Translations under genes and position numbers: made by a program
Shown: piece by piece, positions 466-11,597 of the stretch
Position numbering within the stretch: position 1 is the stretch's first letter
Layout: every line of letters begins with the position of its first letter
Source of the DNA: a virus
Taxonomy: Duplodnaviria; Caudoviricetes
Length of the DNA stretch: 64,000 nucleotides
Direction: 5' to 3' (one strand)
IMG/VR virus record: IMGVR_UViG_3300017917_004426
Location: 566 to 64,565 of that record
Notes under the pieces: generated by a model
What the model saw: the letters and a program-made list of their open reading frames with translations, nothing else
Database searches by the model: none
Told to the model about the DNA's origin: nothing

Positions 466-1485
466 ATGTTGCCTGTATTTTTAACTGAAAAAACTGACGC
501 TCGCAATTCTAGGCATTATCTCTGGCCGCTGATTCCTGCTGACTCATTGGTCATAACTGAACATGTTGCAGCCGCTAAAGAAAAACTCATGAACTGGAAA
601 CAGTTTTGCCCGGACTACAATGGCCAAACCATATACTATGACCTAACTCACAACCCAGAAGTGTTGGATTCGCCACACATCATCTCATTGATAGATGAGA
701 TGAAAACACATGGTACGGTAAAAATTCTAGCCAACCAATATGTAAAATATTATACCCCTGATCCTGATTATATTTTTTATCCGGCGTTTTTTCATGCCTT
801 ATCACATGGAACTTATTTGGAAGGCCGGGCATTACAATTTCCAACTTTTGAGAAAAAAACCAAAGGATTCATGAGTTTGAATCATCGAGCAATTTGGCAT
901 AGAATATGGCTGTTTGTAGAATTGGCCAAACACAATCTGCTTGACAAAATTGACTATACATTTTTCTGGGACCCACGCAACGATCCACACAATCAACTGG
1001 ATCAATTGCCCGATTACAAGCGTGAAGAATTCCGTCAATTTGAACATCTGTTGCCCATGAGATTTGAGTCAGAAAAACTGGACAACTACAAAGCAGATGT
1101 AAGCCTAGGACCTAAATGTCACAACGAATGTGCTGTAAACATTGTTACTGAGAGTTGTCCAAATTTGGGATTCTTAACTGAAAAAATTTGCAAACCATTG
1201 GCCAGTTATCAAATTCCAATCTTGCTCAGTCATCCAGGTGCCACGCAATTTTGTGTAGATGCAGGATTTGACATGTTTGAAGATATCATACCTTGGCGCA
1301 CCTGGGATTCAATTCAAGACGATCACACTCGTTACGAACTTACCTGTAAATTTATTACAGAGTACGTTACCCATGGAGATGCACTAGCAGACTGGAACCG
1401 CTGTCAAGACAGAGTGATTGCCAATCGAGCACGATTAACAAGCACTGAGTTTAAAAAGTTTTGTATTCAGCAGTTTAAACTTTAA
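466..1485 (+). CDS. Hypothetical glycosyltransferase-like protein (paralog of 25977 and 44216)
   Basis: 339-aa ORF; FMSLNHR...HR and NIVTES...LTEKICKPL...GFDMF motifs resemble the ITEK region of GT10-like folds; TAAGTA box 6 nt before the ATG. Confidence 0.55.
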   Translation: MLPVFLTEKTDARNSRHYLWPLIPADSLVITEHVAAAKEKLMNWKQFCPDYNGQTIYYDLTHNPEVLDSPHIISLIDEMKTHGTVKILANQYVKYYTPDPDYIFYPAFFHALSHGTYLEGRALQFPTFEKKTKGFMSLNHRAIWHRIWLFVELAKHNLLDKIDYTFFWDPRNDPHNQLDQLPDYKREEFRQFEHLLPMRFESEKLDNYKADVSLGPKCHNECAVNIVTESCPNLGFLTEKICKPLASYQIPILLSHPGATQFCVDAGFDMFEDIIPWRTWDSIQDDHTRYELTCKFITEYVTHGDALADWNRCQDRVIANRARLTSTEFKKFCIQQFKL

Positions 1486-2060
1486 CTGTATTCGTACGGT
1501 GTATCATCTTCGTCGTAGTTCACATCAATGTGAGCACCTTTTACATTGTCATAAGCCTTGTAGTAAGTTTCATTAGCAGCCAGTATACGGAATGATCCAG
1601 GATACTTTAATGCCGCAAATGTTGCTTCTTCCTTCTTGAGCAAATCACAAATCACAAAAGTTGATGTACAAGCACCTTCTACATTCTTGAATGCGCTGTG
1701 CTTGAACTCGTTCCGGCCAAGTGCTTGATGCATAGGGCTACCCCACTTGAAAATAATTCTAGTAATGCCCAGCTTTTGATTGCGCAGTCTAAACTTGTCG
1801 TAGATTGTGAGCTCAGAGAGAGTTGCACAGTTGTTATCATCGATAACAAGCAAAGCTTCTTTGAATTTTAAACTACCTTTGGTATGGGAATTGTCGGGAG
1901 TTTCCTTGGTGCTCCAAGGCATGTTGGCGTCAACATGATCGACGTAGAAAGTTTCACCATGTGTTTTTAAGACCCACATTGGTATGGTCTCGTCCTCTAA
2001 GTGCTTTTTGTTGAAATGGAAGACTACATCTCTACAAGCATATTCGATCTACATTGACAT
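1482..2060 (-). CDS. Hypothetical protein with an in-frame amber codon at codon 4 (192 aa if suppressed)
   Basis: AAGGA-N7-ATG TCA ATG TAG ATC GAA TAT GCT TGT...; reads MSM*IEYACRDVVFHFNKKHLEDETIP in frame into the 165-aa ORF 1482-1979; TAG at 2049-2051. Confidence 0.7.
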
Positions 2061-2080
2061 TTTTGTTTCCTTTAAAAAAG

Positions 2081-2086
2081 TATTTA
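2081..2086 (-). promoter_or_regulatory. Late promoter box TAAATA next to the tRNA CCA end
   Basis: Reverse strand reads CACCA-TAAATA-CTTTTTTAAAGGA, upstream of the amber-containing gene. Confidence 0.6.
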
Positions 2087-2162
2087 TGGTGCGCTAGGTG
2101 GGACTCGAACCCACACATGGGAGTTTTAGAGGCTCCTGCTCTAACCTTTTAGCTACTAGCGC
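2087..2162 (-). tRNA. Amber suppressor tRNA (anticodon CUA)
   Basis: 76 nt: GCGCTAG/CTAGCGC acceptor stem, A73, encoded CCA; D arm GCT..GG..AGC; anticodon arm GGAG(C) CT-CTA-AA (A)CTCC with U33; 5-nt variable loop; T arm GTGGG-TTCGAGT-CCCAC; A15:U48 pair. Confidence 0.9.
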
Positions 2163-2170
2163 ATGTGATT

Positions 2171-2179
2171 ATTATAACA
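2171..2179 (-). promoter_or_regulatory. Extended -10 (TGn-TATAAT) promoter for the tRNA
   Basis: Reverse strand TGT-TATAAT ends 8 nt before the tRNA 5' end. Confidence 0.55.
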
Positions 2180-2180
2180 G

Positions 2181-3329
2181 TTAAACTTTGAACCACGAGA
2201 GATATTGGGCAACTTTTTTAGTTACACTTGCCCAATCATCCTGTGCTGGTTGTCTAAACAGTCGCGCAGTTGAATACCAAGGCGAATCATCACGATTCAA
2301 CAAGTAACGCCAATCTGTACCAAACCAGTTGAGCATGATCCAAGTAGGTCGACCCAGCGCCCCGCTCAAATGACTCACAGCAGTGTCCACACCAATTACC
2401 ACATCCATGGCCATGATCAAGGCCGCAGTGTCAGCAAAACTTTGTATGGTGCCAGGAAATCTACTTACACCAGCAGCAGCCAATTCCGCTTCTTCCGCCT
2501 CGCTGGCATCAATCTGCAAGTTCACCCACTCGTATTGGGGATTGCTCTTTATCATGTCTAGCATGACAGGAAATGGCATACCTTTGTGTTCGTTTAACCA
2601 GTTGTCTTTTCTACCACTCCAGCAAAACCCCACTCGCATGCGTGTTTTTGGACCCAGACGTTGCAACCATTCTTGTTGCTTGCCCATGTCTGCATTGAGA
2701 TAGTTTACTGGTCTGGCCAAATTTTCTAGTGTGACACCTAAAACTCCCGGGATACTCATGATAGGAGTCCAGTAATCAAAGTTTCCCACATCATCCACGT
2801 ATCTACCAATTTTTTCTATAATTGGACTGCCAGCAAACAGTGGAATAAGCGAGTCTGTTACTTTGAGTTTTATCTTTGCACCCATCACATGCAGATTGTA
2901 GAGAAACCGCACAAACTGAATATTGTCTCCGTGCCCTTGCTCACCCTCTACCAAGATGGTTTTGTCTTTGAGATCTTGTCCGGTCCAGCGCGGTTGTGGG
3001 TGTTTGGGCAGTTGTCCTGCCAGGTGTTCGTAGTTCCAACGAGTTTCGTATTGACGCCATCCTGCTTGATAGTTGCCCAACTGTAGTAGCGCCACAGCGA
3101 GATTAAATTGTGCTGTGGCCGAACTGGGTTCTAGTATGATAGCGTGTTGTAAAAATGGCAGTGCTCTAGCAGGTTGCCCGCACTCTCTCAACACATTGCC
3201 ATAATTGTTCCAGGCCGCTGCGGATTCTGGATCGTCAACAAATGCTTGAGCATAGCATTTAAGGGCTTCCAGTGGGCGATGTTTGGCTCTAAGGTCGTTG
3301 CCTTGAGCGATGAGAGTGTTGGTGTCCAT
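2181..3329 (-). CDS. TPR-repeat protein with a C-terminal GT-B (GT9-like) glycosyltransferase domain
   Basis: TPR helices (AAWNNYGNVL, AQFNLAVALLQLG), then GEQGHGDNIQFVRF and VDTAVSHLSGALGRPTW; start set at ATG 3329, 5 nt after TAAATA. Confidence 0.8.
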   Translation of the reverse strand: MDTNTLIAQGNDLRAKHRPLEALKCYAQAFVDDPESAAAWNNYGNVLRECGQPARALPFLQHAIILEPSSATAQFNLAVALLQLGNYQAGWRQYETRWNYEHLAGQLPKHPQPRWTGQDLKDKTILVEGEQGHGDNIQFVRFLYNLHVMGAKIKLKVTDSLIPLFAGSPIIEKIGRYVDDVGNFDYWTPIMSIPGVLGVTLENLARPVNYLNADMGKQQEWLQRLGPKTRMRVGFCWSGRKDNWLNEHKGMPFPVMLDMIKSNPQYEWVNLQIDASEAEEAELAAAGVSRFPGTIQSFADTAALIMAMDVVIGVDTAVSHLSGALGRPTWIMLNWFGTDWRYLLNRDDSPWYSTARLFRQPAQDDWASVTKKVAQYLSWFKV

Positions 3330-3371
3330 GGTGATATTTAACATACATACTCTTTCATTTTACATTTTCGC

Positions 3372-3462
3372 TAAATACTTGTCAACGCAATAAGGCGTTT
3401 TATGCAGCTCACCACTGCGTAGCGGCTAGAACCCGCATTGGGCTTCTATAAGGAGAAATCAA
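3372..3462 (+). promoter_or_regulatory. Late promoter plus structured 5' leader
   Basis: TAAATA at 3372-3377, three consecutive hairpins, then the SD TAAGGAG at 3449-3455. Confidence 0.6.
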
Positions 3463-4287
3463 ATGGGAAGAGCTCTAAAAATTCAAAAAACAGGTTCCAA
3501 CGGTATCACAATCAATGCCAACGGAACAGTAAATCAACCTGCTGCATCAGTGCCAGTAGATGAAGGTTTTCCAAACTTTGGATCATTGACTGATCCAGTG
3601 TATAATGCACCAGTTCAAACATTGAACGCGGATCAATTCCTTGGTGTAGTTGGCGGAGCACCTGTGCTCAGCTCACCTACAGCAACATATCCTGAAATTT
3701 CACCTCAGGTGAATATTGCATTACCAAGTGGCTCAGGTCAAGGTGCTACAACTGGTCGCATTATTCGCCAGAAAGGTGCTCACAAATTCTTAGTATCTAG
3801 CGACACCACAGTTAACGACGAAGAAATGGTAGTTGGTGCAAGTTACATGATTATCAGTTTAGACACTACAAACTGGCAACAAATGGGTGCTCCTGCTGGC
3901 GCAACAGCCGGTACAATCTTTACTTGCACAGCACTTTGCGCAGATCCACAAAACGGCACAGGCGTGTTAGTTGGTCAATGTGTTTTGGCCAATACAGGTA
4001 CACCAGCAGCCGGCCAAATGAGCATCAGTTATTCAGTGGGCGACAGTTCTGCTGTGTATGCTTCATATATCACCAACAAGTGGGTGCGTGACTGGAATGG
4101 TATGACTTACCAGAACTATAGCAACAGTAACTTTGGACCAAACGTTCAAAGCGGCGAAAACTTCTATGTTACCAACTTCTTCACAGACGAAGGCACAGTT
4201 ACATGGTCTGGCGCAGAACTCATCAACAGCACAAATGCTCAAAATGGTTCTCTGCAACTGGCTCAAATTACTAATATTACATCGTAA
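3463..4287 (+). CDS. Hypothetical virion structural protein
   Basis: 274 aa, strong SD, late promoter, beta-rich composition, precedes the fibre cluster. Confidence 0.6.
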   Translation: MGRALKIQKTGSNGITINANGTVNQPAASVPVDEGFPNFGSLTDPVYNAPVQTLNADQFLGVVGGAPVLSSPTATYPEISPQVNIALPSGSGQGATTGRIIRQKGAHKFLVSSDTTVNDEEMVVGASYMIISLDTTNWQQMGAPAGATAGTIFTCTALCADPQNGTGVLVGQCVLANTGTPAAGQMSISYSVGDSSAVYASYITNKWVRDWNGMTYQNYSNSNFGPNVQSGENFYVTNFFTDEGTVTWSGAELINSTNAQNGSLQLAQITNITS

Positions 4288-4335: not shown

Positions 4336-4908
4336 ATGACCACAGCATTTGTATTGGGTAACGGGATCAGTCGCAAAGGTGTCAATCTGGAACATCTACG
4401 GTCTCACGGCACAATCTATGGTTGTAATGCTCTTTATAGAGATTTTTCACCAGATGTTTTGATAGCCACAGATCGTCCAATAAGCGAACAAATACAGCAC
4501 TCAGGCTATGCGCTCAAACATAAATTTTACACTAGAAGACCTCTTAAGGATCTAGGCGCACATCATGTGCCCGAACAATATTGGGGCTACAGTTCTGGAC
4601 CATTGGCTGCTGCTATAGCAGCTGGAGATCAACATCTAACAATCTATCTTTTGGGATTTGACATGGCTGGCATAAACGACAAATTCAACAATGTGTATGC
4701 TGACTCAGAATTCTACAAACGTAGTGGAGCAAATGCAACTTATACAGGTAATTGGGAGCGGCAATTGATCAAAGTAATGCAAGATTACCCTCACACAAAC
4801 TTCATTAGAGTGCATGGAGCAGTCACAGCAGATGTGCCAGAATTCAATCGACACCCCCGATACTCGCGTGTAAACATCACAGAATTTCAAAATTTATTTG
4901 GAGTTTGA
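4336..4908 (+). CDS. Hypothetical protein with an MptE/Maf-like glycosyltransferase-related Rossmann motif
   Basis: AFVLGNGISR...IYGCNALYRDF.PDVL...SSG...IYLLGFD motif set. Confidence 0.55.
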   Translation: MTTAFVLGNGISRKGVNLEHLRSHGTIYGCNALYRDFSPDVLIATDRPISEQIQHSGYALKHKFYTRRPLKDLGAHHVPEQYWGYSSGPLAAAIAAGDQHLTIYLLGFDMAGINDKFNNVYADSEFYKRSGANATYTGNWERQLIKVMQDYPHTNFIRVHGAVTADVPEFNRHPRYSRVNITEFQNLFGV

Positions 4909-10460: not shown

Positions 10461-11597
10461 ATGGCAACTACACTGAATTTTCCCACCAACCCCACGGTAA
10501 ATCAACTGTACAGCTTTGGCGGCAAAACTTGGATTTGGACTGGACAAGCCTGGCGTTTAAATCCACAGGGTGCTATAAACGGCATTGTTATCGGAAATGC
10601 TCAACCTGCTGCTGGCACTTTTACCACGCTCACAGCCAATACCCTAAATGTAACCAACGAAATTGTATATGCTAACTTGGCAGTGGGAAATCTGGCAGTA
10701 AGCAATGTCAGTGTAACAGGCAATGTAAATTCGGCATTGAATGTGCGTGGAAATGTTACAGGTACCAATGTTGTAACAGGTGGAGAAGTTGTTGCGTCAG
10801 GCAATATCAGCACACTGTCTGAGATCAGCGCATTAGGCAATATAACAACTAGTGGGTACTTTGTTGGCGATGGTAGTCAACTGTCAAATGTCACTGCTGG
10901 GTCGCAGATTGTGTCAGGCAACAGCAATGTGGCTGTTCAGGGCGCAGGCGGAAATGTTTCTGTAGGCGTTCATGGTGTTGCAAACGTAGCGGTGTTCACT
11001 CCCACAGGCGTACAAACATCCAATGTCAATGCCACAGGTGCAATTAGTGCTGTAGGCAATATTTCTGGACAGTATTTTGTTGGTAATGGCAGCCAACTTA
11101 CTGGCATTGTAACGTCTGGTGGCAGTTCAATTAATAACGGCAATAGCAATGTAACAATTGCTGGTACCAATGCCAACGTCACAGTCAGTGTTAATAACAT
11201 TGCAAATGTGGCAGTTTTTAGTCCCACACAACTCAGCGTGGCAGGCAATGTTGTGGCCAACAACTTTGTGGGCAGCGGACAAGCACTTACGGGTGTGCTG
11301 GCTGATCGTGGCAGCGACACAAATAACTGGAACACGCTGACTGAAATGGGTGTGTATACGGTAAATAGAATAAGTTGGTCAGGAACCAGTGGCACTCCGT
11401 TGGACAGCCAGGTTTTTGTAGGATTATTGGAAGTGATAAACAGCACAAACACTGCTATTACACAGGTATTTTACCCAGGTACAACACAGCCAGGAGATCA
11501 AAAAATACAGTGGAATCGCAGCAATTGGGCAGGAACATGGACCGATTGGATCAAAATTGTTAATGATTTTCAAGTGGTCACCGGTGGTGAGTTTTAA
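10461..11597 (+). CDS. Tail fibre protein with a C-terminal knob-like domain
   Basis: LNFPTNPT..QLYSFGGKTWIWTG N-terminus; GN-rich shaft; WNTLTEMGVY..GLLEV..TQVFY..WTDW C-terminus resembles pyocin-knob domains. Confidence 0.7.
   Translation: MATTLNFPTNPTVNQLYSFGGKTWIWTGQAWRLNPQGAINGIVIGNAQPAAGTFTTLTANTLNVTNEIVYANLAVGNLAVSNVSVTGNVNSALNVRGNVTGTNVVTGGEVVASGNISTLSEISALGNITTSGYFVGDGSQLSNVTAGSQIVSGNSNVAVQGAGGNVSVGVHGVANVAVFTPTGVQTSNVNATGAISAVGNISGQYFVGNGSQLTGIVTSGGSSINNGNSNVTIAGTNANVTVSVNNIANVAVFSPTQLSVAGNVVANNFVGSGQALTGVLADRGSDTNNWNTLTEMGVYTVNRISWSGTSGTPLDSQVFVGLLEVINSTNTAITQVFYPGTTQPGDQKIQWNRSNWAGTWTDWIKIVNDFQVVTGGEF

Follow-up and report, generated by a model that had tools for sequence, protein, structure and literature searches.

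Why would a phage carry an amber suppressor tRNA directly upstream of a small gene that has an amber codon three codons behind its start? This question is raised by a 64,000-nucleotide stretch of viral DNA from IMG/VR (record IMGVR_UViG_3300017917_004426, positions 566 to 64,565; hereafter the window), on whose minus strand a tRNA gene with the anticodon CUA is followed by a gene with TAG as codon 4. The arrangement recurs in the gene family, with TAG as the only stop at this place. We consider it very probable that the TAG is a programmed amber codon which is decoded by the phage's own tRNA(CUA).

The tRNA(CUA) gene and the interrupted reading frame

The elements of the locus are given in the order in which they are read on the minus strand.

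2171..2179, minus strand: extended -10 promoter-like sequence TGTTATAAT, 8 nucleotides (nt) upstream of the tRNA 5' end, recognised from the sequence
2087..2162, minus strand: tRNA with the anticodon CUA (amber suppressor), found by ARAGORN and Rfam RF00005
2081..2087, minus strand: ATAAATA, a box resembling T4 late promoters that overlaps the last base of the tRNA, recognised from the sequence, with a putative function
2068..2072, minus strand: Shine-Dalgarno sequence AAGGA, 7 nt before the leader ATG, recognised from the sequence
2052..2060, minus strand: leader ATG TCA ATG (Met-Ser-Met), read from the sequence, with a length and letters that vary among relatives
2049..2051, minus strand: in-frame TAG, codon 4, followed by ATC (next base A), read from the sequence
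1482..2048, minus strand: coding sequence after the TAG, 188 codons and the stop TAA, for an all-beta N-domain and an alpha/beta C-domain

The tRNA folds into a canonical class-I cloverleaf with the pairs G1-C72, C2-G71 and G3-C70, the discriminator A73 and an encoded CCA end. Rfam RF00005 matched it over the full length (1-71) with 60.7 bits at a gathering score of 29, and ARAGORN reported it as the sole tRNA of the 64.5-kb contig. The original prediction, made from the sequence alone, had described a full tRNA with encoded CCA and the anticodon CUA at 2087-2162, and both programs agree with it. In the window ARAGORN lists this one tRNA, with the anticodon CTA and the label 'Pyl', a label that follows from the anticodon alone. 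Judged by its features the tRNA is not a tRNA-Pyl. The latter has no G18-G19 or T-psi-C consensus, a 3-nt variable loop and a 6-bp anticodon stem; our tRNA has G18-G19 and a T-loop with GTTCGA, and its anticodon stem and variable loop measure 5 bp and 5 nt. An initiator tRNA reading UAG was rejected as well. Initiator tRNAs are marked by a mismatch at 1:72 and, at the base of the anticodon stem, by three G-C pairs. In our tRNA G1-C72 is paired, and the anticodon stem GGAGC/ACUCC includes one A-U pair and a C-A mismatch.

The gene encodes a genuine tRNA and is under selection. Its 14 distinct relatives in alignment A3 have G1-C72, C2-G71, G3-C70, A73 and CCA in common, and the anticodon loop C/U32-U33-CUA-A37-A38 is invariant. 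Compensatory double changes were observed in 10 of the 15 pairs predicted from these 14 sequences by RNAalifold, which did not predict the D-stem. Altogether 129 distinct CUA tRNAs were collected, with the loop CTCTAAA in 97 and TTCTAAA in 26 (together 123/129). By its sequence the tRNA is an ordinary class-I elongator, and suppression of UAG in vivo is predicted.

When compared to the phage's own Lys, Gln and Tyr tRNAs, tRNA(CUA) showed 54-63% identity. Among 580 other phage tRNAs, the best partners of the CUA tRNAs were most often Thr and Met (21 each), followed by Lys(ctt) with 16, Arg(tcg) with 11 and Lys(ttt) with 10; Gln came to 1. The inserted amino acid may be lysine or glutamine, as we guess from E. 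coli identity rules. Which residue is inserted probably matters little, since Met, Thr, Asn, Arg or nothing stands at this position in relatives. We did not accept glutamine on the strength of database proteins with 'Q' at the TAG position. This 'Q' most likely comes from gene calls under genetic code 15, and every related DNA that could be read has TAG there. For example, the DNA of locus L004 gives MTDLNPIAI-TAG and the database protein P0009 reads MSDLNPIAIQ.

The leader ATG (2060-2058) lies on the minus strand behind the tRNA end, with 26 nt between them. After the TAG, 23 sense codons (IEYACRDVVFHFNKKHLEDETIP) lead to the Met at 1979-1977, which opens a 165-aa (amino acid) open reading frame (ORF) ending with TAA at 1484-1482. 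The original prediction gave AAGGA-N7-ATG TCA ATG TAG, with 23 sense codons joining it in frame to the 165-aa ORF, and this is what the sequence contains.

An assembly error can be dismissed as the source of the TAG. A contig from run X1 (1760-2116) and a contig from run X6, which belongs to another study (1983-2162), showed 0 differences to the window, so that contigs from two studies both show TAG where a sense codon had been considered. No variant at 2049-2051 is among the differences listed, and 91 further differences exist. Matches to diverged relatives in those runs end at 2051/2052 and at 2087, with ATG-NNN-TAG in the sequence that overhangs. Contigs from an RNA run span the tRNA and 1941-2051; neither transcription nor translation follows from them.

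Apart from this single codon, TAG keeps its usual meaning in the genome. Greedy coding coverage was best with the standard code (95.6%) and fell to 93.3% when TAG was not counted as a stop. TAG terminates 4 of 55 large ORFs of the window in one count and 5 of 58 in another, while TAA or TGA terminate 53 of the 58 ORFs of the contig. Genome-wide TAG recoding (code 15) was ruled out on these grounds, as the original prediction had claimed. The gated gene is the only gene of the window with TAG close behind a plausible start codon. The check for in-frame TAG in the middle of genes covered the window, and the check near the start covered this contig (G000), a related 133-kb contig (G001) and Rhizobium phage RHph_I1_18. 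On G001, as on G000, the CUA tRNA is the sole tRNA and the gated gene the sole TAG-led gene.

Conservation of the leader TAG and its link to the tRNA

We obtained 151 distinct 5' regions of the gene family from four IMG/VR scans. The form ATG, zero to eight further codons, TAG was present in 113 of them; 36 had normal starts and 2 were spurious motif matches. All first-round relatives that included the 5' end (20/20) had TAG at the equivalent place. The stop at the leader position was TAG in 113/113 and never TAA or TGA, and it is kept in relatives down to about 40% identity. It is followed by A in 105 and by G in 8 of the 113, with no C or T. Bossi as well as Miller and Albertini are said to have found in 1983 that a purine after TAG favours amber suppression. 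Leader length, counted in codons with the ATG, was 1 in 6 distinct cases, 2 in 83, 3 in 5, 4 in 15, 5 in 1, 6 in 1 and 9 in 2, and the commonest form was ATG-NNN-TAG-ATT. Of 112 distinct TAG-type genes, 98 have a Shine-Dalgarno-like motif in front of the leader ATG.

The leader-TAG signature exceeds chance. We defined it as a Shine-Dalgarno sequence and ATG, at most 10 codons, a stop and then at least 60 open codons. It was found 83 times with TAG in the gene family; elsewhere in the same sequences it was found 27 times with TAG, 25 times with TAA and 24 times with TGA. In 185,579 prokaryote species genomes the family matched only on 3 short contigs of metagenome-assembled genomes (MAGs), all of them with TAG.

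The segment behind the TAG shows a coding pattern in its evolution. In 85 distinct segments the 23 codons varied mainly at the third position, with entropies of 0.43 (position 1), 0.28 (position 2) and 1.13 (position 3). The family shows the pattern expected of programmed readthrough, in which a stop keeps its position and the codons behind it are conserved. The segment also holds the most conserved motif of the family, with F14, H15, F16, N17 and K18 invariant in alignment A2. There is no general alternative start behind the TAG, since the 23 codons are free of ATG, GTG and TTG in 31 of the 85 distinct segments, as they are in the window. A search of 5.8 billion proteins with the 192-aa reading gave 1,418 matches, and most of the 120 matches listed were 185-193 aa long and covered 94-100% of this reading.

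The protein carries the motifs FHFNKKHL, PMWV and STKETPDN-HTKGS. In the AlphaFold models, residues 5-17 form the first long strand, and the confidence (pLDDT, predicted local distance difference test) was 82 for the full protein and 93.5 for an 86-aa short-form relative. We found no match of the gated protein in Pfam, PHROGs and NCBIfam. A PDB sequence search with the profile A2 gave nothing below E 0.7, and Foldseek found no PDB match at E <= 0.001 with the full-length or the short-form model. BFVD returned the family's own members only and the ESM Atlas nothing above 0.80. A PADLOC match to ThsB/TIR-like proteins (27 residues, E 0.00097) was taken as chance.

Linkage of the gene to the tRNA was examined in TAG-bearing modules with at least 3 kb of flank. 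ARAGORN alone found a CUA tRNA in 92 of 111. All of its CUA tRNAs (120/120) lie on the strand of the gene, 97 of them upstream of it, and in 59/113 loci the CUA tRNA is the only tRNA. A covariance model of the tRNA family recovered tRNAs of 29-82 bits in 11 loci that ARAGORN had missed (L047, L035, L167, L077, L228, L210, L123, L127, L211, L109 and L244), and also located CUA tRNAs elsewhere in the records. Surveys of suppressor tRNAs by ARAGORN alone will thus under-count. After both methods, two 11-kb fragments and one complete 353-kb genome were still without a CUA tRNA. A YTCTAAR pattern scan of whole records gave fewer matches than the control. In the converse direction, a search from the 17-nt anticodon arm of the tRNA led to 45 IMG/VR loci, of which 25 hold the gene, on the same strand and always with TAG. 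In L168, L176, L187, L197, L216, L223 and record G016 (L283, L287) the module has a pair of CUA tRNA genes no more than a few kb away.

In the short-form branch of the family, a gene resembling PTH2 peptidyl-tRNA hydrolases lies directly upstream of the family member. Two such genes matched Pfam PF01981 with E-values of 9.8e-9 and 2.1e-16, and others matched more weakly. They make up a second family, independent of the first, and have the same leader TAG in 35/35 distinct cases, never TAA or TGA, followed by A in 32 and G in 3; at some loci both genes have it. The C-domain of the gated protein itself is not a PTH2, as it has no Pfam similarity and hhalign of A2 against the alignment of phage PTH2-like proteins (A7) gave a probability of 0.2%. 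Two loci found via the anticodon arm, L328 (minus strand) and L348 (about 2314-2658, plus strand), are without the gene family. Their ORFs have an ATG-x-TAG leader and a PTH2-like motif (IIRKDL and FIRTDL), and the L348 ORF has no Pfam match.

The normal-start family members have no internal TAG. Their initiator Met stands exactly at the TAG position and is followed by Ile, Val or Leu (MIELAC, MVELAC). As a rule a CUA tRNA is nevertheless near them, e.g. about 235 nt upstream in L113, L121, L137 and L151.

Among 50,697 phage records, tblastn found the family in three phages only. The complete 171-kb genome of Rhizobium phage RHph_I1_18 has 24 tRNAs, one of them CUA, and one TAG-led ORF. This ORF is an unannotated family member of 82 aa that reads MSEFM-TAG-NESCREVIFHFNK, with TAG as codon 6, and the tRNA follows 12 nt downstream of it. 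It is located at 2977-3225 of L023 (MN988519.1 about 11000-11248), between the annotated 'tRNA-Pyl(cta)' and a methyltransferase gene. RHph_I1_18 is the only cultured phage in these records with a TAG-led member and a CUA tRNA. In the jumbo rhizobiophages Phosso and Atu_ph07 the domain is fused to a helical N-terminal part and stands beside a PTH2 gene, with no TAG. A CUA tRNA is encoded at another place in the Phosso genome (L302 1501-1576). In Atu_ph07 the best match to the CUA-tRNA model was a UCA (opal) tRNA (L303 1501-1575), which suggests that stop-codon specificity switched within the tRNA family. The gene family, the hydrolase and the suppressor tRNAs travel together with or without the gate.

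Proposed mechanism of the gate and competing explanations

In the mechanism that we propose, the ribosome would start at the ATG behind the good Shine-Dalgarno sequence and meet UAG after three codons. Either termination would free the tripeptide, or the suppressor tRNA would be accepted and the protein of about 192 aa made. The output of the gene would be set by charged tRNA(CUA) competing with release factor 1 (RF1). In this way the leader TAG would couple synthesis of the protein to the efficiency of suppression in the infected cell and act as a feed-forward sensor. With TAG at codon 2-5, a failed attempt would cost just a di- to tetrapeptide. We favour such a sensor as the purpose of the gate, with the gene and the PTH2-like hydrolase presumably belonging functionally with the suppressor tRNA.

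Several observations weigh against this proposal. Readthrough of the leader TAG is itself deduced from sequence evidence. The complete 353-kb genome (G017, the record of L174, with direct terminal repeats) has no CUA tRNA by model R1 at E <= 1e-4, and its PTH2-like gene is TAG-led (MNT-TAG-ISTTEKLRVV). The gene was absent from the fetched stretch in 10 of the 25 tRNA-found loci with at least 3.5 kb downstream. Conversely, 6 of 10 normal-start relatives with full flanks and no TAG in either gene are still near a CUA tRNA, and L106 and L242, also without TAG, have one elsewhere in the record. The presence of the tRNA does not depend on the TAG of the gated gene. Co-occurrence of the two had been put forward as a test. 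A tRNA on the same strand was indeed found in most TAG-bearing modules, and in more of them by the covariance model; the test is not a sharp one, as TAG-less relatives keep the tRNA. Since CUA tRNAs stand beside TAG-less relatives, the gene and the tRNA are linked by more than decoding. Finally, back-up stops behind TAG-terminated phage genes are no closer than behind others (Mann-Whitney p = 0.88, n = 36 vs 428) and give no sign of a genome adapting to strong general suppression.

A broader version of the sensor is possible, and we put it forward tentatively, as something we would not bet on. The tRNA, the FHFNK-motif protein and the PTH2-like hydrolase might form a self-contained suppression module that is auto-gated by the leader UAG. 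Early tRNA would force UAG readthrough in the infected cell. The two proteins would act together with the tRNA, e.g. by antagonising RF1 or by clearing peptidyl-tRNAs or ribosomes stranded by readthrough, and the UAG next to the start would let the module sense and tune its own activity. If this were true, the orphan CUA tRNAs of standard-code phages would gain a purpose and a target, and the family would be a new small all-beta translation factor.

The gate could also serve to delay or silence a toxic gene, with synthesis held until the tRNA has accumulated. The gated gene should be unreadable in an uninfected host, and among cellular genomes the family occurs only on the 3 short MAG contigs, which fits a product wanted or tolerated during infection only. 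The promoters speak against a timer. The extended -10 before the tRNA and the late box between tRNA and gene, both part of the original prediction, are present in the sequence. TGTTATAAT is probably an early host sigma-70 promoter of the tRNA, although a scan that required a -35 passed over it. A -10 hexamer (at least 5/6) ending 5-11 nt upstream was found for 43 of 121 distinct CUA tRNAs and at 28 of 484 control positions; for a -10 with a -35, the counts were 32/121 and 4/484. In the 70 nt before the leader ATG, ATAAATA was present for 25 of 112 distinct TAG-type genes, compared with 10 of 560 control windows, while the full TATAAATA was found once in the window and was not enriched. With an early-type promoter on the tRNA and a late-type box on the gene, the tRNA should already be present and the gate should therefore add little delay. 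Moreover, 36 of the 151 distinct relatives manage without a TAG. The idea of a timing gate, with which the original prediction had started, is weakened by this, and we hold a pure delay timer to be unlikely, less likely than the sensor.

The main mechanistic rival is re-initiation, in which the leader is a mini-ORF and the ribosome restarts at the adjacent AUU, AUC or AUA after terminating at UAG. No suppressor would be needed, and the tRNA would serve something else. The codons behind the TAG leave this rival some room: the codon after TAG was ATT in 83, ATA in 6 and ATC in 5 genes, i.e. a near-cognate start codon in 94/113. A protein that begins at the TAG position is also viable, as normal-start relatives begin there. 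However, in the remaining 19/113 the codon is GTA, GTT, GTC, ACT, AAC, AAT or AAA, none of which counts as a start codon. Re-initiation should be indifferent to the type of stop, yet it is TAG in every one of the 113 and 35 leaders. The cognate tRNA found on the strand of the gene at most loci counts against it as well. Taken together, re-initiation appears to us a rather remote alternative.

Still further down stands the reading of a broken or shortened gene, which we give hardly any credence. The TAG would be a nonsense mutation, and the product, if any, the 165-aa ORF from Met-1979. Public proteins of 161-180 aa (P0006, P0007, P0024 and P0042) look like such products, and a GAGGA lies upstream of Met-1979. 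These shorter entries are code-11 gene calls on the same DNA, and the GAGGA is 13 nt off, inside conserved codons (HLEDETIP). Homologs do not start at Met-1979, since the 23 upstream codons are conserved and codon-periodic and encode the first beta-strand of the predicted fold, and the TAG itself is kept in relatives down to about 40% identity. The 165-aa form would lose strand 1 and the FHFNK motif. Just as improbable is a UAG that stands for a required non-standard, pyrrolysine-like amino acid: the 'tRNA-Pyl(cta)' label, given by ARAGORN and in the GenBank record of RHph_I1_18, rests on the anticodon, the tRNA features are not Pyl-like, and relatives have ordinary residues or none at this position.

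Relation to known systems and neighbouring genes

That phage suppressor tRNAs read in-frame TAG is known. As far as our literature search shows, a single 5'-proximal and gene-specific UAG in standard-code phages is new. Our literature search, whose scope left aside supplementary tRNA tables, found no description of a leader-TAG gate and, for RHph, unrelated papers only.

The code-15 phages (crAss-like, Lak, Agate and others), which read TAG as Gln, are alike in that a phage tRNA(CUA) reads in-frame TAG in a standard-code host. They differ in having many TAGs across structural and lysis genes and in having lost TAG as a stop. Here, each genome has one TAG, 1-9 codons after the start of one or two small genes, and TAG is still a stop. 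For TAG-recoding phages a regulatory role in late expression has been proposed (bioRxiv 10.1101/2021.08.26.457843). The Xanthomonas jumbo phage XacN1 is alike in carrying CUA tRNAs in a standard-code genome. The targets of suppressor tRNAs in such phages are acknowledged as a blank in the XacN1 paper. In contrast to XacN1, a target is identified here, and the codon is at the 5' end of the gene and not at its 3' end.

In their logic, bldA and prfB appear to be the closest analogues. In Streptomyces, the bldA tRNA-Leu(UUA) is the one tRNA needed for a handful of regulatory TTA-containing genes. Its one-tRNA logic is the same, but it concerns a rare sense codon and cellular development, whereas here a viral tRNA would compete with a release factor at a stop. 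In prfB, the gene of RF2, an early in-frame UGA senses termination capacity and is passed by a +1 frameshift. It resembles our case as an early-stop sensor and differs in that its product is the release factor itself and that, here, a suppressor tRNA would pass the stop. The lambda bar minigenes are stand-alone ORFs of two to three codons which act through peptidyl-tRNA drop-off and are linked to Pth. They recall the short leader and the PTH2-like genes of the sister phages; here, the mini-ORF continues into a conserved protein.

The locus provides a concrete and conserved target class for suppressor tRNAs of standard-code phages and so answers the question left by XacN1. Its layout is a minimal 'one tRNA, one codon' case, as the sole tRNA of a 64.5-kb and a 133-kb contig stands beside the sole codon that needs it. 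A recurrent error of annotation is accounted for by it, as code-11 callers shorten or miss these genes and code-15 callers print Q. It also ties a high-confidence fold with no PDB match, together with a PTH2-like hydrolase, to stop-codon suppression. RHph_I1_18 offers a test system that is cultured and non-pathogenic, and the leader might be put to use as a compact amber-gated switch of natural origin.

As for the surroundings, the window covers 64,000 of 64,565 bases of one viral contig (G+C 44%) from a T4-like freshwater phage. The contig encodes several proteins of 1,100-1,600 aa and starts inside what we take, by its appearance rather than by a search match, to be a T4-type major capsid gene. 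Megablast of the first 8 kb of the window against phage records gave no match. On the plus strand, a freshwater-2 RNA motif (Rfam RF02980; 76.2 bits vs a gathering score of 49.9) at 3383-3465 ends at the start codon of a 274-aa ORF (3463-4287) that has no family match. The gene upstream of the tRNA (2181-3344, minus strand) encodes TPR repeats and, at its C-terminus, a part resembling glycosyltransferase 9. In front of this gene, at 3357-3385 on the minus strand, stands a near-consensus sigma-70 promoter (TTGACA-17-TAAAAT, 11/12), which could be an additional driver of the tRNA and the gated gene. A 190-aa protein encoded at 4336-4908 (plus strand) matched phrog_30607 (1.1e-38) and, weakly, a sialyltransferase-like PHROG. 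This protein and the TPR-glycosyltransferase may belong to a small cluster of glycosylation genes next to the fibre-like genes.

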